Virus record (IMG/VR): IMGVR_UViG_3300045581_000334
Location: 12,695 to 76,694 of that record
Length of the DNA stretch: 64,000 nucleotides
Origin: a virus
Reading direction: 5' to 3' (one strand)
Part shown: piece by piece, positions 4,678-20,351 of the stretch
How positions within the stretch are numbered: the stretch's first letter is position 1
Layout: every line of letters begins with the position of its first letter
Notes under the pieces: generated by a model
What the model was told of the DNA's origin: nothing
Database searches by the model: none
The model's input: only the letters and a program-made list of their open reading frames with translations
Position numbers and translations under genes: made by a program

Positions 4678-5252
4678 ACCTGCTCCAATGAAATATTAAC
4701 GCTCCAATATGGCTGAAGACCTCTTTTAACTAGAGTGCAATCAAAGCCACTAAATACTACTGTGTATATATTTGAAGTAGAAGAGTTTGCTGCAGAAGCT
4801 GATTCCGATGTATTTATTTTAATTCTAAATGATGTTCTTCCTGCTAAACTTTCATAGAATGTTTTTAGGTCTTCCGCTCCCCAAGCTCCGTCTACTGTTT
4901 CATTTCTAAACGAAGGCAACATTGACCATGAAGTAGAAAACGTTTTCTTGTCTGCAATAATAAATTCTCTTAATGTTCCATTAGCCATTCTTGTAGACTG
5001 CTTAATTCTATTTGTGTTGATAGATAAATCTGATCTATTATGTTCTGTTACTCTTCTAAAAGCTAAAGAGTCTTTGTTAGATACAATTAAATTATTTGTA
5101 GTAGCTACCGAAAGCGGATAAGTTTGGCCTCCAGCTGTTCTATCTGTAGTTTCTCCAGGATATCTAAAAGCAGTTGAGCCTGGAGTCATAAACAGTAGAT
5201 CTTTTGCTTCTATGTATAGGACTGAGCCTTTGGGTAAATTTTCAAAACTCAT
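4674..5252 (-). CDS. Distal tail (Dit-like) protein
   Basis: Directly downstream of the tape measure; RMANGTLR...FSTSWS motif. Confidence 0.65.
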   Translation of the reverse strand: MSFENLPKGSVLYIEAKDLLFMTPGSTAFRYPGETTDRTAGGQTYPLSVATTNNLIVSNKDSLAFRRVTEHNRSDLSINTNRIKQSTRMANGTLREFIIADKKTFSTSWSMLPSFRNETVDGAWGAEDLKTFYESLAGRTSFRIKINTSESASAANSSTSNIYTVVFSGFDCTLVKRGLQPYWSVNISLEQV

Positions 5253-8200
5253 CTAATCACCTTTACTTGTCCGCCCATTTGCAAGTTTCTATTTGACATA
5301 ACTGCAAACACTTCTTGTGCTGCTGCTCTAGCTAATGCTCTTTCATCCATTCCTGGAGCTGCATTAATAACTATATCACCTATTGTAACATTACCCATTA
5401 CTGGACCAGCTGTAGAGTACATTCTTCTTGGAGGGTTTCCAACAGTTCCTCCAGTTGCAAATCTAGGTATTCTTATATCTGTGCCCTTAAACAATCTAAA
5501 TCCGCCCATGTATTTAGAATTTTCAGTAAGCTGTGGATTTGCCTTTATAATACTATTTAAGGAAACTCCAAATCTTCTTGCTATTCCAAATAATGTATCT
5601 CCTCTGTTAACAGAGTAATCTTTTGCATTTCCTAAATTATGTGGTGCAAGGTCTCCGCCTACAAGGTCTGTTGTTTTTGTTGCATCTCTATAATCTGGTC
5701 TTCCGAAGCCTCTTGTATATATACCAGCTCTAGGATTATATGGACCAAACTTTCTATTCTTTACTGCAACCATTCCACCATTTGTTTGATTTGACCCTGA
5801 AGTATTTCCTTCAATTGTTCTTATAACATTCTTGCTAACTATTCTAGAAACTAAACCAACATGGTCTGTTATATTTTTATTTCTTCCAAAGTCAAAGAAG
5901 ACTAAATCTCCTGGTTCTGGGTTTTGATATAGCCTCTTCTTGGACCTAAATGATGAGTATCCAGCTGCAGTTCCAACAACATTTGGAATTTTAACTCCAG
6001 CTAAACTTGATACCCAATTAATAAATCTACCGCACCATAAATCAAAGGATGGGAGTACTCTAGATATTGCTCCTGTAAGAGCTTTAGCCACTGGATTGTT
6101 GGTTGCCTTTTCTATATAACCAATCGCCTTTTCCGCAACTCTGAGCATTGCAGACTTAGTTCCCATTTCTAAATTCATTCCAAATATGTTTTTAAGATCT
6201 GGATCTCCGCCAGCTCCAAATCTACCTACAGGGCCACCATCTTTCATTCTGTTCAAGCGGTCTAAATTTTCATATCCTATGTTGGCAGCAGAGGCAGCAT
6301 TTATTACATACTCTCCATTAGAAAGCATTGCTGGAATAGAATCTGATGTTCCAGTTCCAGGCCCAGTAACTGCTCCACCTGTAACAAAATTCTTTACCCT
6401 ATTTCCTTTAGTTTTTAATACATCGCTATAGTCATAAACTTCACCAGTACTTCCTACTGGAGAAGCATATCTTTTACCCTTATAGGTAAATACGTTATAA
6501 ACTATTCCGTCTATCTGAACTCTTTCTGGTTGCTTTGCTCCTGCCTCAGCATCTCTAGCAGCAGTATAAAGATCCTTAGATTTAGAGACATCTTTAGGTT
6601 TTGTTCCTGGGTTTACGGTTACTCCAGCAGATCCTGTTGGGGTAAATTGATTGCCCATATCTCTGCTTATGGATTCTGCTAATTGCTTAATAGTCATTCC
6701 GCCAGTAATTAGCATAGCTTGAGATCTCACTAACTCTAAATCTCTATTAAGGACATCCCCCATTTTTCCTTTAGTAAATACACTATTTAACTGTAATCCT
6801 GTCTTGGGATCATATGTTGGGGCTTGAGATACTGAATCAAAATTTAAAGCTTTTCCAGAACTATCAAAGAATTTTCCAAAGGCTTTCTTGATATCTCCAG
6901 CAATATCAAATCCCTTATTTCCTTTTGTTACAAGGCCAGCTGCCTGTATCTCTTTCACTAAAGACTTTAATTGATTGTCTGTTTGTCTTTGTGCATCTAC
7001 TCTTAGTTTAGGATCTTGTATAAATTCATTTGTTTGTTTTTGTAAAAGTAAATCTTTATACTGCTGTGTGTAATTTTGTATTTTAGCCATAGCTTCTTGA
7101 GCTCTGGCAGCTTCAGCTTGAGCATCTTGAAACTCTCTTTGTCTCTTCTTTTCTTCTTCTGCATTTTTCTTTTGTTGATCTTGTAAAGCTTTTTCTTTTC
7201 TTGCAGCGTCTTCTTGAATAGCTAATCTGGCTTGCTCTGCCTGGTATGTCTTTTGTAATTGAATTAAATCTAAACGTGCTCTTTCAGCAGTTTGGAAGTC
7301 ACCCTTTGCAATAGCTGCTTGGTAATCTAGTCTTGCTTTTTGTATTTGTAGTTCATACGATTCTCTTTTTTCAGTGGCATCCAAAGCTTTTAATTTCTCA
7401 TTAGCAGCTTCTCTAATTAAATCTATTTGCTTCTGAAGTTTCTCATTTTGATCTTCCGCTGCACGTGAAGCTTTTTGTTGAGCTAAAGCGGCCTCTCTTC
7501 CAGTCTTGTCGATTATAGATTGTAAATTTGCCATGGTGAAACCAATTTGTTTAAAGGTTCCATCCATTCCAGAAAGTCCAAGACCAGTACTGAATGCTTT
7601 CTTTCCAGCATCAATTAGTTTATCTTGAGCTGCAGTAAATGCTGTTAAATATCTATCAAGCTGGGCTGCTGTTTCAGAACTTAATCCCTTAAGGTCTACC
7701 TGTACACCTTTAACATAAAGTCTCCACTTTGCGTATATTCCTGCAATAGTATCGCTTTCTTTAGCAATTGCCTGTAACTCTGATGGAAGTTTTTGGAATG
7801 CTTCTATTCCTACAACTTGATCAAATCCCTGAGACTTCATCTTATTTGTAACTTCAACTAAGGCTGCATATTCTCCCTTAACTTCTCCAAGAGCATTCTT
7901 TTGGCCAGATATTGAAACTATTGACTTATCAGTTAAATCAATTACAGAACTCATTCCTTCTATAACTTTAGTCTTATACTGATCTACTTCCTTATCTCCA
8001 GCCTTAATTGTTTGAGATAAATGTTTTACAGAATACTCTGCAGCAGTTGATGAATCTTTTACGCCTGCAAATGCTGAATTAGTCATAACATTTATAGCCA
8101 ATTTAGAATTCTTTGATGCTGCTATCATTCCCATTATTTTCTTATTAGCTTCTTCTACGCTCATTCCAGCAGCAATAAATTGAGCTTTTATATTTGTAGC

Positions 8201-11200
8201 AAGCTCTGCAATATTACTTGCATCTGCTCTATCAAATGATGCTACGAACTCTCCCATATTTTCTTTAGCAAATTCTTTAGCCTGCTTTAATTCTTCCATT
8301 GACATATTTAATCCAGAAATTCCACCCATTCCAGATTTGCCAGCATTTTGTAATTGAGTTTGTCTTTGTGCAATAAGCTTCATCTTATCTGCAAGACTTG
8401 TATATTGAATTCCTGCTTGCTCCGCCGCCTTGGCATTCATTCCAAATCTTAACTGTGCGTCTCTATTCCATTCACGTGTTTTCTTTATAAGTACGCCTAT
8501 GCCTACAGTCAATGCTGCTATTCCAGCTAGCGGACCAACAAATAGAGCTTTAGATAAAACTACACGGAGTACATTCATAACTTTTGCAAACGTGCTTGCA
8601 GAAGCTCCAGCTGATGAGAATGCCCCCTTCATCGCAGTAAGGCCTTTTCCTACTCCAGCAATTCCTTTACCAATTCCAGGCAACATCATTGGCAACATAG
8701 ATCCGCCCATCATGACTGCCATACCTAATCCAGTTTGTCCTTTTGCCATTAATGCAGAGCCTGCTGCCATTCCAGCCATGCTTGCGCCCATATTCATTCC
8801 CATGCTTGATCCACCACGAGACATTGCTCCCTGGAATCTTTGCATTGCAGTTGGCGCACTTAATCCAGCAGCTCTTGCTGCAGAAGCGGACATCTGCGTT
8901 ACTTGTCCAGTCGCAGAATCTCTTAATGCAATCTGCTCTCTTCTAAATCCTAAAGGTCCAGCTTTTCTAGAAAGAACTTCCTTTCCGTCATGCATACGCA
9001 TAGCACCTTCAGCGCCAACCTGTGGTGTCCAAGCAGTTAAACCTACTGGACCTATATATCTCTGTAAAGCATTTTTAGCTCCAGCTAAATGTTGTAAATG
9101 AGGTGGAAGCATTGATGGGGTAGCATTATAATAACCCATCTTTGCAAAATCATGAGTAGCTCCCCTTCTTAGTATTTGTGTAGTTTTATCAATTCCTCTT
9201 TTTATAATAGCTGCTGAATCTGTTACATAAGATTTCATTCCGTTAGCGAGTGACACTCCTGCAGATTTAAATGACGCCACTGCATATTTGGCAGAAGCAA
9301 GACTTTGAATTGCTAAAGCATTCATTCCTTGTTTAAGGGCTACGCCAGCATTTTTAATTACAGCCTGCATGTATTGTGCTTGCTGAGCGAGTCTACTTGT
9401 GAATGGGTCTATTAATGAGCTTCTAAGATATGCTCCTGGATTGTAAAAGCTTGTAGTTCCTTGTCTAACTGCTTCTCTACCAAGTCCTGTAGTTAATGCT
9501 TGTTGACCATAAATTTGATGAGATGCAGCACGAGATCTTTCGGCTTCCATTTCTCTAATTCGTTTTTGACGTTGCTCGGCTTCCCATTTTGCTCTTGCTG
9601 CAGGATTTCCTGGTCTACCGTAATTGCTTCTTCCAGAAACAATTCTGCCTCCTCCAATTAATCCTCCACGATTAAATGCTGGGTTTGCATGAATTGGTTG
9701 ATACTTACTCCAATTAACATTCATTCCATCTTCAAGTCTTGAAAGCATTGAAATATATGGAGCTCTGTCTGACTCTGGTAAAGAATTTATAAATGCTCTA
9801 AGTTTCGGATGCATTGCTTTCATTGCAGCCTTCATCTTGGCCCCATATTGTCTTGGAGACATTCCTGCTGCAACTGGAGCTGTATTATATGCAAAATCTT
9901 TTCTAGCGCCACCACGAACAGCAAGTAGGTTTATCATTGCCTGCTTTTCCATTGAATTCATTGATGCTGCGTATTCTGTATTCATGGAGGCTCTTGGGAA
10001 AACCCCTGCAGGACCAACGTCAGCTAATACATTTCCAAAAACATTAGACTTTGACAAATCTTTATTTCCAAGCAAGAGGGATGCTATTGTTTGTCTAATC
10101 ATTTGATCTTCTGTAAACTTAGTTCCACCTGCTGCAAATTTTGGATCAAATGGTGACTCCAATCCCAGCAACTTACTCTTTCCGCTTGGGTCATAAGGAT
10201 TTTTTACAGCTCTTACAGTTTGAACTGGAGAGTCTAATCCAAAAACTTCTCTTGACATTCTTGTTCCATACATTTCAGATTTAGCAGTTATTGCATTTGG
10301 AACACCTTTTAAGAAAACTAATTCTCCATTTTCGTTTCTATAAACTCCAGAAACTCCAGGAATAGGATAGCTCTTTCCAGAACTTGGTGCAATTTGATGA
10401 CTATATGGAGTTACAGGAAGGTTAGAGAATTCTCCTAAAGATTTCTTTGAGCTAAGTTGTTTTGATGTGTTTAATACTCTAAGTATTTTTTCTGGAGTTA
10501 AAAGAGGAACAATGTTTCCATAGTTACGTCTTCCACCTGATATTGATCCTCCAGGAATACTACCTCCAGAATTAAATGATGCAAGAACTGGGGTCATAAT
10601 AGGAGGTCTTCCTCTTGGAACCATAACCCAACGTTTTCTTTCAGTTATTGCTTGCAACAACATCTTCAAAGACTGCTTCTGTTGTGGTGTCGCCCTAGAT
10701 GGCAATGCCTTTCCAGCTTTTATGTCGGCAAGTTCTTTTTTACTTGGGAATCTATTTCCTGGATCAGACAATGCCACAGCAATGTCATCTAACGTTGTCA
10801 TTCTAGACATTCCAGCTTTCTTAATCATATCTGATAATGATTCCTCAGCGTCTGCCTTTGTTAAGTGTAAAACATCTCCTCTTAGTTTAATTTGATCTAG
10901 TCTATTCATCAAAGAGTTTAGTTCTGAATCAATTACCGCAGCGACTCCCATGTGTCCACGTGTGGCATGCCCTACTTGATCATGTCTCAATAAGTGGCCT
11001 CTTGCTACACCGACCTTTGTTCCTTGATCATCTCTCATCTCTAAATATGGAACTCCGCCTGTATTTAAAACTTTTGGATCAAATAATTTCATTTGTTTCA
11101 ATTCATTTGAGACATTTGCAAATCTTGGATCATCAGCCATAAATTTCTGCAACATAAATATATGTTTATTTAAAGCTGAACTGCTTGGAGTTCTTGTTGC

Positions 11201-14200
11201 AGCTCTATTTGGATGACTTAATTTAGGATATTTCTTTTCTAAGTCCTTTACCTGATTAATTCTATGTTTAATAAATGAATCTAGATTACCTCCAGATTTT
11301 GTTTTAGCAGCATTAAAATTATCAAATGCGACTTTTACAGCCTGGTCTTTTGGCATTCCAGCATATTCCATTAATTCTGCAGCATCCAACATAACCATTC
11401 TCATTCTTACAGAATCTTCATAGAAAGGATTTTTTATAAATTTAACTAACTGGCCTAATTGTTTTCTATAGTAAGCAGGAGTTTCTCTATACTTTTCTCC
11501 ATAGTTACCTTTGTTTTTCATTACTTGCCCGCCAAAATTATATCCGTTATTAGCAGCTTCTAGTGCATCATATAACCCTGGAATTCTATTTATCTTTGGG
11601 CCAAAGACAACTTCTCCTGGAGTAAGAGCTGCTGTTATTTCTCCGCCACCCTCGAATGTATATGGAGCCATAGCAATCAAATCCTTATTTTGTGGATCTA
11701 ACGAAGCTCCTTGATTTAGTACATAACCTCCCAATGGGACTGTTCCAAGCCTATCGTCATAATTTATTGAAGTTGATCCAGATACAGTTGTCTTGTTTGG
11801 TCCAAAAGATTCTACCATTCCACCATCATTAAATTTAGGAAGTCTTGTTGTCTGTATGCTGTATGGCGCACCAAATGTTCTTACTCCACGGAGTCTACCA
11901 AACTCCTCCATGACAGCCCTGTTGCCTTCTTTTTTGTATAGATCTCTTAATGTGAATTGTCCATTAGCATCAACTACTGGCTGATTCATCAATGGGGCTT
12001 TTGTAAAATCAATTGTTCTTCCACGAGCTGCGGCAAATGCTCCTAGCTCAGATCTCATTGCAGATTCTAATTGTGCATTTATAGCTATGATTTCTGCTTT
12101 AGCTTGATCAACAGTCATTTTGCCAGCACGTAATTGTGATACTATTGCTGCAGATTGTGTCGCAGCATTATCTGCTAATCTAGTCGTAATTGGCAGAATA
12201 TCATCAAAAGTATCTAGTAGTTCGCTGCTTACTGTACCGCCTAAAGCTATAGTCTTTTTTAATGTTGCCACTTCTGCTTCTGTTTGCATAGCAAGTGTAG
12301 ATAGTAGTGCATGATATCTTGCAGCTTCTCCTGAAACTATTCCTGTAGAAACTCCCTTTACTTCTGTTAATCCTGGAATTCCTGGAAGTCTTTCATGCAT
12401 GTATATCTGTGGAGTTCTTCCAATCTTTTGATTAACAGGAATTGCTCCTGGAACTCCGCCTAAAAATGTAGCTGGATTATTTGGGTCTCTTGGATTAATA
12501 TGAGACATTGCTCTTGTATTTAAATCTCCAGAATATGGATCGTTTGGATCAACAACTCTTCTTCCTCCAGCCATTACTGTTGAGCCAGCTACCGTGGTAA
12601 CTGCTGGATTTACTGGGATTGTACCTTTAGCCATTGCTGACTGTAGGTTCATGTAATCTCCAACTAGTTTAGTTAAAGCTCCGTGTAAAACTTCTGCAGC
12701 TTTTGCATCTGAATAAAAAGCTTTTTCCACCATTTGAGAAGCTTTTTCTGCAGCAATTATTTCTGGAGTAAGCATCTTCCATCCCTTTGATCCTTGGAAG
12801 AGTGCTTTTAATGAAACTATACCCTTAGTTACATAACCAAAGAAGTTAGCTAGCACACCAGTTAACATAATTATTGGACCAATAACTGCCGTAAATCCTC
12901 CTAGGTATGTGACTGCTTTTTTAATTGGTTCTGGTAAATTAGTAAAGAAATCTAATACTTTAGTAAATGCATTTATAAACTTTGTTGCGACACCTAAGAA
13001 GTCTTCTCCAACATCTGCAAGGCTAGCTCTTAATCCTTCAATAGCTCTTTTATATTTACCAGAAGCAGATTCAGTTACTAATGTTAATTCTCGACCAGCT
13101 ATTTCTGCAAGTTGCGATGCGCTTGCATTCATTAAATTCATTACCTGTAATGTTTGGCTACCTTCTTTGCCCAAGTTATTAAACAGTGCAGCCATTCTAG
13201 CAAATTGGAATTTACCAAACATTTGCTCAAGTGCTCTTGCTTTACTTAATGGATCTAATCCGTCTAAAGCTTTTTGTAAACCTACTATCATTCCAGTTGT
13301 ATTGCCAACGTTTTGCTGAACTAATCCCATTATGTCTATGCCGAATTCTGACATAACTCCAACTGTTTGCTTTGTCGGATTAATCATGGAGGCAAGACCA
13401 GACTTTAGTGCGTTAGCTGCCTCTGAGGCATTAACTCCACCTTCACGCATGGCAGTCAAATATAATGCTAAATCTTGTACGTCACCGCCTAATTGTTTTA
13501 CAACGGTACCAGCTTTTGGAATTGCTTCAACAAGGTCGTTTAGTGTTGTGGATGTCTGGTTTTCTACAGCGTTTAAAAAGTTAATTGATTCAGTTAATTC
13601 TTGAGTGTTTGATTTGAAAGCTGTTTGAATTGCTAATGTAGCCTTCATTGCTTCTGCTCTATCTACTTCACCAAGAACTGCTAGCCTTGTTGTTTCTTTT
13701 AATGAAGATAGTAGCTGTTCGCCTTGCTGCCCAGTTGCTGCAATATCAGCGGCTAATCCAATTGTTTCTTTAAAATTAACTCCCATTGCATTAGACAATT
13801 CTTTAGATGTATCAACAACATCTTGTCTAATTTTTTTCAAGTCTGCAGAAGCTGTTCCAGCAATATCTCCATAAACCTTAACTAGTCTTGTTAGTTCTTG
13901 ATCTGCTTCTCTAAAAGCTCTAGCAGCTTGCGATCCAAACATTGCTAATGGTACTGTTAAACCTACTGTTAACTGACGACCAGCCCATTGAGTATTTTTA
14001 CCCCAATTAATTAAAGATGTGGCACCTTCAGATAATGCACGATTCATTATCTGTAATTCCATTCTGGCCAACTGGGTTCCATTTCTTACGGAATCTAGTC
14101 CTCTTGGAATCATTACATTGTATTGCATTAAACCTTGAGCGTTTCTACCCAGAGGCTGCATTACTGCATTTTGTAACATTACCTGCTCTTGAGCAAGTTC

Positions 14201-14527
14201 TCTAATTAATCCTTTAGATGTTTTTACATGTGTTCTAAATGTTGAAAAATAATCTCTTAATTTTAATCTACCTGCATCGAGGTTTTTACCAAATTTATCT
14301 ACATCGGATTGTAAATTTACAAAGTGGCTTGAATACATTCCGCTTCCGACAAGCGTATCTCTGAACATATTGTTAGCAATTTTTGTTGCGGAAGCAATTG
14401 ATTTGTTAGATGTTACTAGTTCTCTTTGAAGTTGTTGTAGACTAGCCGTAGCCCTGTGTACTTCGGACACAAGGCTAGACAAGTCAGCTTTGGCGACTAT
14501 ACTCGTTACAATTTGTTCGTCTGCCAC
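5249..14527 (-). CDS. Tape measure protein with internal cargo domains and C-terminal CHAP + LysM
   Basis: 3092 aa directly after the tail chaperones. TP901-like TMP core (EGGVNASEAANALKS), CHAP (WCGRF...HVGLV...IEGN) and LysM (YSVNRGDTLFGIARRFGVS). Confidence 0.95.
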   Translation of the reverse strand: MADEQIVTSIVAKADLSSLVSEVHRATASLQQLQRELVTSNKSIASATKIANNMFRDTLVGSGMYSSHFVNLQSDVDKFGKNLDAGRLKLRDYFSTFRTHVKTSKGLIRELAQEQVMLQNAVMQPLGRNAQGLMQYNVMIPRGLDSVRNGTQLARMELQIMNRALSEGATSLINWGKNTQWAGRQLTVGLTVPLAMFGSQAARAFREADQELTRLVKVYGDIAGTASADLKKIRQDVVDTSKELSNAMGVNFKETIGLAADIAATGQQGEQLLSSLKETTRLAVLGEVDRAEAMKATLAIQTAFKSNTQELTESINFLNAVENQTSTTLNDLVEAIPKAGTVVKQLGGDVQDLALYLTAMREGGVNASEAANALKSGLASMINPTKQTVGVMSEFGIDIMGLVQQNVGNTTGMIVGLQKALDGLDPLSKARALEQMFGKFQFARMAALFNNLGKEGSQTLQVMNLMNASASQLAEIAGRELTLVTESASGKYKRAIEGLRASLADVGEDFLGVATKFINAFTKVLDFFTNLPEPIKKAVTYLGGFTAVIGPIIMLTGVLANFFGYVTKGIVSLKALFQGSKGWKMLTPEIIAAEKASQMVEKAFYSDAKAAEVLHGALTKLVGDYMNLQSAMAKGTIPVNPAVTTVAGSTVMAGGRRVVDPNDPYSGDLNTRAMSHINPRDPNNPATFLGGVPGAIPVNQKIGRTPQIYMHERLPGIPGLTEVKGVSTGIVSGEAARYHALLSTLAMQTEAEVATLKKTIALGGTVSSELLDTFDDILPITTRLADNAATQSAAIVSQLRAGKMTVDQAKAEIIAINAQLESAMRSELGAFAAARGRTIDFTKAPLMNQPVVDANGQFTLRDLYKKEGNRAVMEEFGRLRGVRTFGAPYSIQTTRLPKFNDGGMVESFGPNKTTVSGSTSINYDDRLGTVPLGGYVLNQGASLDPQNKDLIAMAPYTFEGGGEITAALTPGEVVFGPKINRIPGLYDALEAANNGYNFGGQVMKNKGNYGEKYRETPAYYRKQLGQLVKFIKNPFYEDSVRMRMVMLDAAELMEYAGMPKDQAVKVAFDNFNAAKTKSGGNLDSFIKHRINQVKDLEKKYPKLSHPNRAATRTPSSSALNKHIFMLQKFMADDPRFANVSNELKQMKLFDPKVLNTGGVPYLEMRDDQGTKVGVARGHLLRHDQVGHATRGHMGVAAVIDSELNSLMNRLDQIKLRGDVLHLTKADAEESLSDMIKKAGMSRMTTLDDIAVALSDPGNRFPSKKELADIKAGKALPSRATPQQKQSLKMLLQAITERKRWVMVPRGRPPIMTPVLASFNSGGSIPGGSISGGRRNYGNIVPLLTPEKILRVLNTSKQLSSKKSLGEFSNLPVTPYSHQIAPSSGKSYPIPGVSGVYRNENGELVFLKGVPNAITAKSEMYGTRMSREVFGLDSPVQTVRAVKNPYDPSGKSKLLGLESPFDPKFAAGGTKFTEDQMIRQTIASLLLGNKDLSKSNVFGNVLADVGPAGVFPRASMNTEYAASMNSMEKQAMINLLAVRGGARKDFAYNTAPVAAGMSPRQYGAKMKAAMKAMHPKLRAFINSLPESDRAPYISMLSRLEDGMNVNWSKYQPIHANPAFNRGGLIGGGRIVSGRSNYGRPGNPAARAKWEAEQRQKRIREMEAERSRAASHQIYGQQALTTGLGREAVRQGTTSFYNPGAYLRSSLIDPFTSRLAQQAQYMQAVIKNAGVALKQGMNALAIQSLASAKYAVASFKSAGVSLANGMKSYVTDSAAIIKRGIDKTTQILRRGATHDFAKMGYYNATPSMLPPHLQHLAGAKNALQRYIGPVGLTAWTPQVGAEGAMRMHDGKEVLSRKAGPLGFRREQIALRDSATGQVTQMSASAARAAGLSAPTAMQRFQGAMSRGGSSMGMNMGASMAGMAAGSALMAKGQTGLGMAVMMGGSMLPMMLPGIGKGIAGVGKGLTAMKGAFSSAGASASTFAKVMNVLRVVLSKALFVGPLAGIAALTVGIGVLIKKTREWNRDAQLRFGMNAKAAEQAGIQYTSLADKMKLIAQRQTQLQNAGKSGMGGISGLNMSMEELKQAKEFAKENMGEFVASFDRADASNIAELATNIKAQFIAAGMSVEEANKKIMGMIAASKNSKLAINVMTNSAFAGVKDSSTAAEYSVKHLSQTIKAGDKEVDQYKTKVIEGMSSVIDLTDKSIVSISGQKNALGEVKGEYAALVEVTNKMKSQGFDQVVGIEAFQKLPSELQAIAKESDTIAGIYAKWRLYVKGVQVDLKGLSSETAAQLDRYLTAFTAAQDKLIDAGKKAFSTGLGLSGMDGTFKQIGFTMANLQSIIDKTGREAALAQQKASRAAEDQNEKLQKQIDLIREAANEKLKALDATEKRESYELQIQKARLDYQAAIAKGDFQTAERARLDLIQLQKTYQAEQARLAIQEDAARKEKALQDQQKKNAEEEKKRQREFQDAQAEAARAQEAMAKIQNYTQQYKDLLLQKQTNEFIQDPKLRVDAQRQTDNQLKSLVKEIQAAGLVTKGNKGFDIAGDIKKAFGKFFDSSGKALNFDSVSQAPTYDPKTGLQLNSVFTKGKMGDVLNRDLELVRSQAMLITGGMTIKQLAESISRDMGNQFTPTGSAGVTVNPGTKPKDVSKSKDLYTAARDAEAGAKQPERVQIDGIVYNVFTYKGKRYASPVGSTGEVYDYSDVLKTKGNRVKNFVTGGAVTGPGTGTSDSIPAMLSNGEYVINAASAANIGYENLDRLNRMKDGGPVGRFGAGGDPDLKNIFGMNLEMGTKSAMLRVAEKAIGYIEKATNNPVAKALTGAISRVLPSFDLWCGRFINWVSSLAGVKIPNVVGTAAGYSSFRSKKRLYQNPEPGDLVFFDFGRNKNITDHVGLVSRIVSKNVIRTIEGNTSGSNQTNGGMVAVKNRKFGPYNPRAGIYTRGFGRPDYRDATKTTDLVGGDLAPHNLGNAKDYSVNRGDTLFGIARRFGVSLNSIIKANPQLTENSKYMGGFRLFKGTDIRIPRFATGGTVGNPPRRMYSTAGPVMGNVTIGDIVINAAPGMDERALARAAAQEVFAVMSNRNLQMGGQVKVIR

Positions 14528-19316: not shown

Positions 19317-20351
19317 TTAGGAAGCAACTTTAACGTTCTTAACAACAACCCACGCATCTGCCTGCTCGATTTGGCATCCAACACGAGTATACATTGTATA
19401 TTCGATGGAGTCCTTCTTCGGCCAGAAGAAGCGATAAACTGTCACGTCACGCTTAATACCAATAACTACGTTATTTGGGAATGTCAAGTGGACATCTCCG
19501 AGATCATTGTCAGCACCCTGGGTTTCCTTCAATAGAGGAACTTCGACAATTGGAATACCAAATGCGAATGGAGCTGTGAATCCAGCTGGACCACCAAGAC
19601 CTGCGGTCTCACCACGGATAATGCTTGCAGCAATATCTTGTGGGTTGACGTTAGAAATATTCTGTGATGTAGAATATAAATAATCTTGGATCAAGTTAGA
19701 TCCTGACAAGAAGCGAAGATCTGGTCTACGCTGCTTGTACTTACGTGGCATAGCCTTAAGTGCGCTATTGAAGATAGAGCGATCAATGACTGCTCCATCT
19801 GCATCAACGACATGGCCGTTAGCCTTAGCAATCTTTACAATGCCGTCAAAAGCCTTGTATAGGTTGTCTGAGCTAAGAGCAGTATCTCCATTAAGGACTA
19901 CGTCCTCAAGGTCGTTACCTGCCTGTGTTGCCATAAGTCTTGCAATATGATCTTCGAGATCGGCACCTTCAATGTTATCTTCTAGAGACTCTGTTGAAAG
20001 CTCCCAATCTAAACGAAGCTTCTTTGTTGTGAGAGAAATCTTTGAGAACTGTACGGCAGAATTTGTGCCAGTGTTCTCGGCTTCAGCGGCAAGCTTCATA
20101 AGCTTTTCGCCAACTCCAATACGATCTATCTCAGTGGTATCAGCTCGCATGCGAACTGTACGTGCTAGCTTTCCGACTACTGTTGCATCGAACATGTAAT
20201 CAAGGAATCTTGCGGACTGCTCAGGATTGAGCAAGCCACCCTTACCCTCGGAACCGACATGGATTCCATCGGTGGGGTTAGCTGCTCCAACCATACTACC
20301 TGTTAGGGTTGTATCTGCTGCAGCCGCTTTAGCTAATAGTTCATTACTCAT
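19317..20351 (-). CDS. Major capsid protein (HK97 fold)
   Basis: GGLLNPEQ, ESLEDNIEG and DLEDVVLNGD motifs; follows the protease gene; biased codon use. Confidence 0.92.
   Translation of the reverse strand: MSNELLAKAAAADTTLTGSMVGAANPTDGIHVGSEGKGGLLNPEQSARFLDYMFDATVVGKLARTVRMRADTTEIDRIGVGEKLMKLAAEAENTGTNSAVQFSKISLTTKKLRLDWELSTESLEDNIEGADLEDHIARLMATQAGNDLEDVVLNGDTALSSDNLYKAFDGIVKIAKANGHVVDADGAVIDRSIFNSALKAMPRKYKQRRPDLRFLSGSNLIQDYLYSTSQNISNVNPQDIAASIIRGETAGLGGPAGFTAPFAFGIPIVEVPLLKETQGADNDLGDVHLTFPNNVVIGIKRDVTVYRFFWPKKDSIEYTMYTRVGCQIEQADAWVVVKNVKVAS

Follow-up and report, generated by a model that had tools for sequence, protein, structure and literature searches.

A predicted kinase-like cassette between conserved linkers of a giant phage tape measure protein

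Tape measure proteins (TMPs) are usually regarded as rulers and channel formers of phage tails. They fill the tail lumen in a metastable form, leave it before the DNA and contribute to the channel in the membrane. TMPs of mycobacteriophage TM4 and of others reportedly have embedded cell-wall hydrolase motifs, and to our knowledge the passengers of TMPs known so far are only such motifs and the RNA polymerase of one thermophilic phage. Here we describe another candidate passenger. It lies in a TMP gene on the minus strand of a 64,000-nucleotide stretch of virus DNA (hereafter, the window), which is part of the 76.7-kb IMG/VR virus record IMGVR_UViG_3300045581_000334 (positions 12,695 to 76,694; completeness estimate of the record 64%). 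The segment is predicted to have a kinase-like fold and is enclosed by two copies of a glycine-rich linker.

The polymerase case is that of Thermus phage P23-45, whose gp96 is a TMP fused to a virion RNA polymerase (Chaban et al., Nat Commun 2024, PMC10770324). The polymerase transcribes the pre-early genes and, as discussed there, works without being detached from the TMP (PMC10770324); therefore, a TMP-borne enzyme can act in the cytoplasm and need not be cut. This is the only experimentally studied case of a TMP-fused enzyme found in the literature searched. Kinase domains are described in phage polyvalent proteins (Iyer, Burroughs, Anand, de Souza, Aravind, J Bacteriol 2017, PMC5512222). 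There, the kinase has lost its whole C-terminal subdomain and belongs to head-packaged proteins of Verrucomicrobia, Chlamydia and Bacteroidetes (pro)phages; the term 'tape measure' is absent from that paper (PMC5512222). TMP-related modular effectors are also described in Streptomyces contractile injection systems, as exemplified by Sle1 (Nagakubo et al., J Bacteriol 2026, PMC13277306). A full-text literature search on 'tape measure' together with kinase terms gave no description of a TMP-borne kinase. Thus, enzymes carried in TMPs are a known concept, and the kinase-like family of TMP inserts described below is absent from Pfam, PHROGs and NCBIfam.

The predicted kinase-like fold and its candidate active site

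The gene and the segment between linkers 1 and 2 are placed in the window as follows.

5249..14527, minus strand: TMP gene (P0001), 3,092 amino acids (aa), a single open reading frame (ORF) matching PF10145 and TMP PHROGs
9677..10516, minus strand: kinase-fold cassette, aa 1338-1617 (280 aa), from an AlphaFold2 model and PDB fold matches

We collected the kinase segment from 80 viral contigs and aligned 64 sequences, which are 38-83% identical to the window copy. With this alignment AlphaFold2 gave a model with pLDDT 88.4 and pTM 0.86, while the prediction from the single sequence was noise (pLDDT 40). In the model two helices lead into a bilobal kinase-like core, which begins at about aa 1368. 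The core shows the N-lobe beta-sheet with helix C and the helical C-lobe of the protein-kinase-like (PKL) superfamily, the latter with helices at model residues 189-198, 206-217, 221-245, 252-264 and 269-277 (pLDDT 86-98).

A fold search independent of Foldseek was run against 48,161 PDB representatives, and the protein-kinase-like fold was found in all 50 of the best 50 rows, which were the ones examined. The top match is CotH (5jda; Z 11.4, root-mean-square deviation 4.0, 215 aligned residues), and further matches include CtkA (Z 10.2), MavQ (10.0), PI4KII-alpha (9.8), Fam20C (9.2), HipT (9.2) and HipA (8.7), with ATM, Vps34, Rio and others in lower rows. Foldseek itself gave weak rows against the PDB (best E 2.5e-3), yet these were kinases, and rescoring of its candidates resulted in Z 11.2 for CtkA, 10.3 for PI4KII, 9.4 for LepB and 9.3 for HipA. 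The structural alignments reach model residues 271-280. According to the guidance of the search tool, the best Z for unmatched models is typically 7-8; the top Z of the cassette exceeds this baseline, the matches span the whole domain and one and the same fold appears in every row. The comparison was made at the level of Z, root-mean-square deviation, aligned length and secondary-structure position. In a comparison with predicted viral structures, phage proteins with an annotated PI3K/PI4K catalytic domain came out on top (E 1.5e-6 to 1e-3), some of them fused to portal, MuF or ADP-ribosyltransferase modules. The nearest named clusters in the language-model Atlas are PI3_PI4_kinase, HipA_2 and LepB_N (0.91-0.92), which we take as a lead only.

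Sequence searches gave no counterpart of these matches. The segment has no match in Pfam at E up to 10, and neither does any of the 64 family members; it has none in PHROGs or NCBIfam, and none in the PDB by phmmer or with the 64-sequence profile. It was not found by tblastn in 50,697 cultured phage genomes. The CotH hidden Markov model (HMM) PF08757, run in six frames over the whole virus record, gave nothing, and the control genomes gave matches. In hhalign the family profile does not match Escherichia coli HipA (probability 0.2%). Hence, the kinase fold that the first-pass annotation had read from a few motifs is borne out by the model (pLDDT 88.4) and by the 50 PDB rows, and an HMM match to go with it was not obtained. 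Its likening of the segment to HipA and to PI3/PI4-kinases agrees with the structural comparison, where HipA/CtkA and PI3/PI4-kinase types are among the best matches. At the level of families, the HMMs of HipA (PF07804 / PF20613), PI3/PI4-kinase (PF00454) and CotH kinase (PF08757) do not recognise the domain, while the structural likeness is Z 8.7-9.4 to HipA, Z 9.8-10.3 to type II PI4-kinases and Z 11.4 to CotH, still the best structural match. In the case of HipA, the shared fold with no profile match suggests that the domain works like the HipA group and is not a member of that sequence family. Taken together, the predicted structure supports the view that aa 1338-1617 belong to a not yet catalogued family of atypical protein-kinase-like enzymes. 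Protein and lipid kinases tie in Z, so the fold does not tell the substrate, and no subfamily or substrate class can be assigned.

The putative catalytic elements are the following.

10340..10378, minus strand: glycine-rich loop GxSxPxPGxxGxY, aa 1384-1396, before model strands 57-60 and 66-72
10307..10309, minus strand: K1407, predicted ATP-binding Lys of strand beta-3, at the end of model strand 66-72
10274..10276, minus strand: E1418, predicted helix-C Glu, in model helix 75-90
10043..10060, minus strand: catalytic loop D1490-x4-N1495 (KDLSKSN), directly after model helix 136-149
10013..10021, minus strand: D1503-V-G1505, metal-binding 'DFG'-type motif, after two short model strands

All four motifs that had been picked out by eye, namely VFLK (K1407), SEMYG (E1418), KDLSKSN (D1490, N1495) and ADVG (D1503), are present in the canonical order, and they turn out to be the most conserved positions of the family. 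Conservation was counted over 259 distinct domain sequences, which are otherwise only ~40% identical. E1418, N1495 and D1503 are kept in all 259; D1490 in 258; K1407 in 257, the two remaining sequences having gaps there; G1505 in 254. G1384, S1386, G1394 and Y1396 of the glycine-rich loop are kept in 250-257 sequences. The order of residues on the model is also canonical: the beta-3 Lys and the helix-C Glu, each recognised by its position on the secondary structure, are followed by the catalytic loop with Asp-x4-Asn, the metal-binding Asp of the DFG-type motif and the activation loop. D1503-V-G is followed by the model's only low-confidence loop (model residues 169-182), as is expected of an activation loop. 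The conservation pattern of the catalytic set argues for a working active site.

A different reading is that of a catalytically dead kinase-like domain, which would serve as a structural spacer adding length or bulk to the TMP. Pseudokinases are common in the kinase-like superfamily, and no kinase family was recognised in sequence searches. However, hardly any variation is seen over these divergent sequences in the glycine-rich loop and in the five residues of catalysis or ATP binding. Therefore, selection appears to act on catalysis and not on bulk, and we consider a dead spacer extremely unlikely.

Linkers and module exchange among relatives

The cassette is bounded by two linkers, and a third one precedes the neighbouring slot.

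11498..11542, minus strand: linker 3, YNFGG-x7-NYG, aa 996-1010, by pattern match
10577..11497, minus strand: slot-1 cassette, aa 1011-1317, between linkers 3 and 1
10517..10576, minus strand: linker 1, FNSGG-x12-NYG, aa 1318-1337, by pattern match
9617..9676, minus strand: linker 2, FNRGG-x12-NYG, aa 1618-1637, by pattern match

The linkers lie exactly at the coordinates given by the first-pass annotation, all within the minus-strand ORF at 5249-14527. The strict pattern [FY]NxGG-x7-12-NYG occurs three times in the TMP against 0.00015 expected per shuffled protein, and the looser [FY]xxGG nine times against 1.67 expected; with observed counts so far above the shuffled expectation, the pattern is not due to chance. 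A recent DNA duplication as the origin of the two long linkers was ruled out by the three-linker DNA alignment, in which the mean column identity is ~61%. Since the DNA identity is only this high, the linkers are conserved as peptides. Their consensus, [FY]NxGGxIxGG...GRxxYG, is fixed across more than 100 relatives and four positions. The distance between linkers 1 and 2 is 900 nt (300 aa), as had been noticed earlier; the exact spacing is incidental, because the cassette has 280-337 aa in relatives.

More than 5,100 giant TMPs share the N-terminal 640 aa of the window TMP at E <= 1e-20, and the best 120 of them, which are 74-100% identical to it in this part, were compared. The kinase is found at position 1,320-1,420 in 112 of the 120 and is missing from eight. 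Among the 119 close relatives the backbone is present in 100%, the kinase in 93% (111/119), the variable part of slot 1 in 71% and a CHAP-LysM module in 15%. The linkers have median identities of 0.55-0.65 in these relatives, compared with 0.36-0.37 in the adjoining variable segments. Linker 1 has a median identity of 0.65 in 112 of the 119, above both of its flanks, and the position of linker 3 gave 118 linker matches.

The relative P0159 demonstrates an empty kinase slot. It is homologous to the window TMP until aa 1337 and again from aa 1613, the kinase is missing, and in the slot a degenerate linker and a full linker stand 3 residues apart. This TMP was found on seven JGI contigs and one ENA contig, with contigs of up to 116 kb. 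With L090, its nearest kinase-bearing relative, it shares 94% identity on the N-terminal side, as far as 10 residues beyond linker 3. On the C-terminal side the identity is 84%, starting 8 residues ahead of linker 2, and the two are unrelated in between. The swapped block is a slot-1 cassette in exchange for another slot-1 cassette together with linker 1 and the kinase. Similar boundaries are seen in other relatives. In P0163 and L166 the homology to the window TMP stops at aa 1010, where linker 3 ends; L166 has ~30 residues after its next linker and then the counterpart of the hydrophobic region at aa 1934-2017. P0002 is homologous throughout except for aa 1102-1312, which end 5 residues before linker 1, and aa 2775-3019. 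The homology to P0002, P0153 and P0170 picks up again at aa 1313-1319. Complete kinase-less TMPs are found on independent viral contigs.

Hence, the homology breaks at or within ~10 residues of the linkers, and the kinase is absent precisely between two of them in P0159, in accordance with the proposal that the linkers are recombination boundaries. These comparisons support the view that the linkers are true module junctions, used in exchange and in deletion. The label of 'cargo cassette', also given earlier, applies in the sense of a module bounded by junctions. It does not apply in the sense of frequent swapping: the kinase is the most constant insert in this lineage, and it is the neighbouring slot that is swapped often. 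The notion of the kinase as a freely swapped cargo within the close lineage had to be toned down in view of the 111 relatives that have it.

Clustering of the inter-linker segments shows that slot 2 contains the kinase or, rarely, something else, such as type C12. Slot 1 begins with a ~90-aa head, weakly conserved between types (23-30% identity), followed by ~210 hypervariable aa, which are unrelated even between TMPs that are otherwise 77-85% identical. At least five cassette clusters occupy it in relatives (C0, C2, C5, C11, C13), and their common part is only the weak N-terminal ~90 aa. The slot-1 cassette of the window has no match in Pfam, PHROGs, NCBIfam or the Atlas. In kinase-less relatives we observed alternative cassettes of 270-470 aa in the same linker-bounded slots (L095:6037-8370, L166:5905-6777, L168:5713-7131, L143:6049-6906). 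Neither these nor the other unassigned parts of the window TMP match Pfam; the alternatives thus make up several more families of unknown function within TMPs.

As for the range of the kinase family, an exhaustive HMMER search of 1.84 billion cluster representatives gave 159 homologous clusters, 128 of them at E <= 1e-30. Among the 150 clusters listed, 134 have a protein length of 1,000-4,468 aa, and several shorter ones begin mid-domain like fragments. The position of the kinase domain within these proteins varies from ~750 to ~2,860. Two short matches are fragments on contigs of 956 and 1,453 nt. On the evidence of nearly all the matches listed, the kinase family is confined to giant TMPs, hundreds of them and all from uncultured viruses. 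No clear separate kinase gene was found among the short matches, the one candidate being P0098. The latter is a protein of 482 aa with the whole kinase domain in its middle, encoded on a 7.5-kb contig, and might represent the cassette in free-standing or split form.

We suggest that the linkers are most likely flexible conserved joints, which let the modules fold independently and let recombination swap them in frame. The first-pass annotation had gone further and proposed a polyprotein, which is cut at the GG motifs and injects an effector kinase. In its full form this model would make the linkers protease sites, with the cut, during assembly or after ejection, freeing the kinase. The linkers are indeed far more conserved than a spacer requires, and their fixed consensus recurs at every module edge. 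C-terminal processing is known for the TMPs gpH of lambda and pb2 of T5. Autoproteolytic release has been proposed for the polyvalent phage proteins (PMC5512222). Nevertheless, no peptidase recognising the linker motif was identified. As ~85% of the linker-bearing relatives have no CHAP domain, general processing cannot be its task; a separate gene for the kinase was not clearly found beyond the two fragments and the single candidate above, and the P23-45 polymerase is discussed as acting while attached (PMC10770324). Cleavage at the linkers thus seems unlikely to us, and flexible joints remain the preferred explanation; their strong conservation leaves room for an added role as a docking or cleavage signal.

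The tape measure backbone and the proposed role of the cassette

Apart from the cassettes, the TMP has the following backbone elements.

13214..13813, minus strand: conserved TMP core (PF10145), aa 239-438, by Pfam match
12815..12919, minus strand: first hydrophobic (membrane-type) segment, aa 537-571, by Kyte-Doolittle scan
8477..8728, minus strand: second hydrophobic cluster, aa 1934-2017, by Kyte-Doolittle scan

The assignment to the TMP family (PF10145 / TP901-type) follows from a Pfam match on aa 239-438 (E 7e-28, 98.3 bits against a cut-off of 33.2), together with the position of the gene in a tail module. The TMP PHROGs span aa 15-1076, the best with E 3.5e-114. The cargo region with the kinase segment sits between the two hydrophobic segments. 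The TMP gene has two small ORFs of the tail-chaperone kind upstream and minor tail/hub genes downstream; also nearby are the genes of the major capsid protein and of an Ig-domain protein of the major-tail type. The order of the tail genes is the same as in Streptomyces phage Wofford (Stanwilliamsviridae), a cultured relative whose TMP has 2,084 aa and contains neither the linkers nor the kinase.

19317-20351, minus strand: major capsid protein, 63% identical to those of Streptomyces Stanwilliamsviridae phages

The G+C content is 32-42% across the window, and no tRNA genes were found in its 64 kb. From its sequence the phage looks like a low-G+C branch of an actinophage family, and its host is probably a low-G+C actinobacterium, given the G+C content and the kinship to Streptomyces phages. 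One related TMP, P0164, which is 87% identical in the N-terminal part, is deposited as 'MAG: ... Nitrosopumilaceae archaeon'; this label is most likely a binning artefact and does not point to an archaeal host.

Further elements are found towards the C-terminus.

6293..6388, minus strand: FVTGG...DSIPAMLSNGEYV element, aa 2714-2745, in 105 of the 119 relatives
5462..6205, minus strand: optional CHAP and LysM cell-wall hydrolase module, CHAP aa 2831-2908 and LysM aa 2971-3001 (Pfam)
6206-6220 and 5447-5461, minus strand: brackets of the CHAP-LysM module, FGAGG (RFGAGG) and FATGG (RFATGG), respectively

The motif GGxVxGPGxGxSDSIPAMLSxGEYVI recurs in the TMP, at 6293-6388, 11642-11656 and 11819-11833 (minus strand), with degenerate internal copies such as EGGGEITAALTPGEVVF. 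In many distant relatives an element of the DSIPAMLSNGEYV type stands directly after the kinase. A full-text literature search for this type of motif gave no paper. The CHAP-LysM module is present in only 18 of the 119 close relatives, and P0002 is without exactly aa 2775-3019. In other relatives OmpA-like (PF00691) or PF18013 modules stand in its place.

We lean, with moderate confidence, to the following explanation: the TMP is modular, with cassettes separated by linkers, and the second cassette is an active kinase-like enzyme, which refolds in the cytoplasm and modifies a host target. The backbone would consist of the N-terminal TMP core with one hydrophobic segment, the second hydrophobic cluster, a coiled-coil half and a C-terminal docking element, and it would be broken by a cargo region of cassettes with a conserved glycine-rich peptide between each. 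The kinase-like domain, presumably an active ATP-dependent phosphotransferase, may be carried in the tail lumen as a part of the TMP in a non-native or extended state. It would exit the tail ahead of the DNA and, flanked by the two membrane-inserting segments, refold on the cytoplasmic side of the membrane, where ATP is present. As infection starts, it might modify a host target there, so as to take over the cell or to counter its defences. Because the domain would be an enzyme, few copies per virion would be enough. As viable-looking relatives exist without the kinase, it seems to be an accessory function and not a structural necessity.

Several points weigh against this explanation. The lumen of a siphophage tail should be too narrow for three or more copies of a 30-kDa domain in folded form, so packaging would need an unfolded state. 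There is no sequence-level link to any kinase family, be it through Pfam, PHROGs, NCBIfam, the PDB profile search or hhalign against HipA, and the kinase assignment is built on the predicted structure, the order of motifs and a language-model lead. A shared fold is also no proof of activity, as AMPylases, glutamylases and pseudokinases have kinase-like folds too. Finally, the near-constant presence of the kinase in the close relatives (111/119) also fits a role in the entry machinery of the phage itself.

The last point leads to another explanation, namely that the domain serves the phage's own machinery, either as an ATP-binding sensor or switch, which detects the cytoplasm and gates DNA entry, or by phosphorylation of the TMP. 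Besides its near-constancy in the close lineage (112/120; 111/119), the fixed placement between the hydrophobic segments and the occurrence of the family as a TMP part across its clusters (nearly all listed matches) are in line with it. On the other hand, complete kinase-less TMPs occur in close relatives and on many contigs, so entry appears to be independent of the kinase, and the cultured relatives (Stanwilliamsviridae) are without it. We regard such a role as very improbable.

The nature of the substrate brings in a further alternative. The domain might be a lipid or small-molecule kinase acting at the membrane during entry, for instance, on phosphatidylinositol or another envelope lipid of an actinobacterial host, with channel formation or membrane remodelling as the outcome. 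Type II PI4-kinases, Vps34 and two lipid kinases of Legionella, MavQ and LepB, rank near the top of the structural comparison (Z 8-10.3), PI3_PI4_kinase and LepB_N are among the nearest Atlas clusters, and the domain is flanked by two membrane-type segments. Actinobacteria possess phosphatidylinositol lipids, and the capsid protein and tail gene order speak for kinship with Streptomyces phages. However, the protein kinases CotH, CtkA, HipT/HipA and Fam20C score equally or higher (Z 9.2-11.4), a difference of less than 1 Z unit being a tie; the host is itself deduced indirectly, and no lipid-binding element was identified. Thus, we consider a lipid kinase rather improbable, and modification of a host target by a cytoplasmically refolded enzyme remains our preferred explanation.

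An extended form of the preferred explanation seems to us possible but doubtful. Here, the TMP would be a programmable delivery rail, in which the ~20-residue glycine-rich joint is both the site of in-frame recombination, by which effector cassettes of dark-matter type are swapped, and a processing or release signal. The kinase would represent a new family of virion-delivered enzymes, whose substrate, a host protein or an envelope lipid, would be phosphorylated within seconds of adsorption and ahead of all phage gene expression.

Comparison with known systems

If the proposed role is true, siphophages would be able to send an enzyme of the signalling or toxin type into the host before their DNA, and in only a few copies. 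The linker-delimited slots would amount to a naturally occurring system for the in-frame exchange of cassettes, several families of which have no known function, and could serve to load proteins into phage tails. The kinase domain is small, its in silico fold is confident and it offers clear knockout residues (K1407, D1490), and the hypothesis is therefore cheap to test. The window contributes to the kinase family one further, independent member, a relative with a cleanly empty slot and the comparison of flanks at 94% and 84% identity.

With respect to fold, the domain belongs beside CotH (5jda), Helicobacter pylori CtkA (3akj/3akk), HipA/HipT, the type II PI4-kinases, MavQ, LepB and Fam20C. 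It shares with them the bilobal architecture (Z 9-11.4 over 190-215 aligned residues) and the same order of glycine-rich loop, Lys, Glu, D-x4-N and DxG. CtkA, MavQ and LepB are, moreover, likewise delivered into another cell. Unlike these kinases, to which it has 10-16% identity and no HMM or profile match, the window domain is not free-standing and is embedded in a virion protein.

The likeness to the polyvalent proteins is one of context: in both cases a kinase-type domain is part of a very large multidomain phage protein predicted to enter the host with the DNA, and cassette-like recombinational variability has been proposed for the polyvalent proteins as well (PMC5512222). However, the window domain keeps its helical C-lobe (model helices 189-277), which sets it apart from the truncated kinase of that group, and it sits in a TMP.

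P23-45 gp96 is similar in that a giant siphophage TMP contains, in the same polypeptide, an enzyme that acts in the cytoplasm and is delivered with the contents of the tail, as is proposed here for the kinase-like domain. There, the RNA polymerase is located at the N-terminal end, whereas the kinase-like domain occupies an internal slot bounded by linkers; cassette polymorphism is not described in that paper.

Last but not least, the inserts of hydrolase-bearing TMPs act on the cell wall, and those of Sle1 are C-terminal domains of contractile-injection cargo; neither an ATP-dependent kinase-like insert nor a repeated slot-delimiting linker is described for them. What they have in common with the window TMP and its optional CHAP-LysM module is a TMP scaffold that carries exchangeable functional domains.

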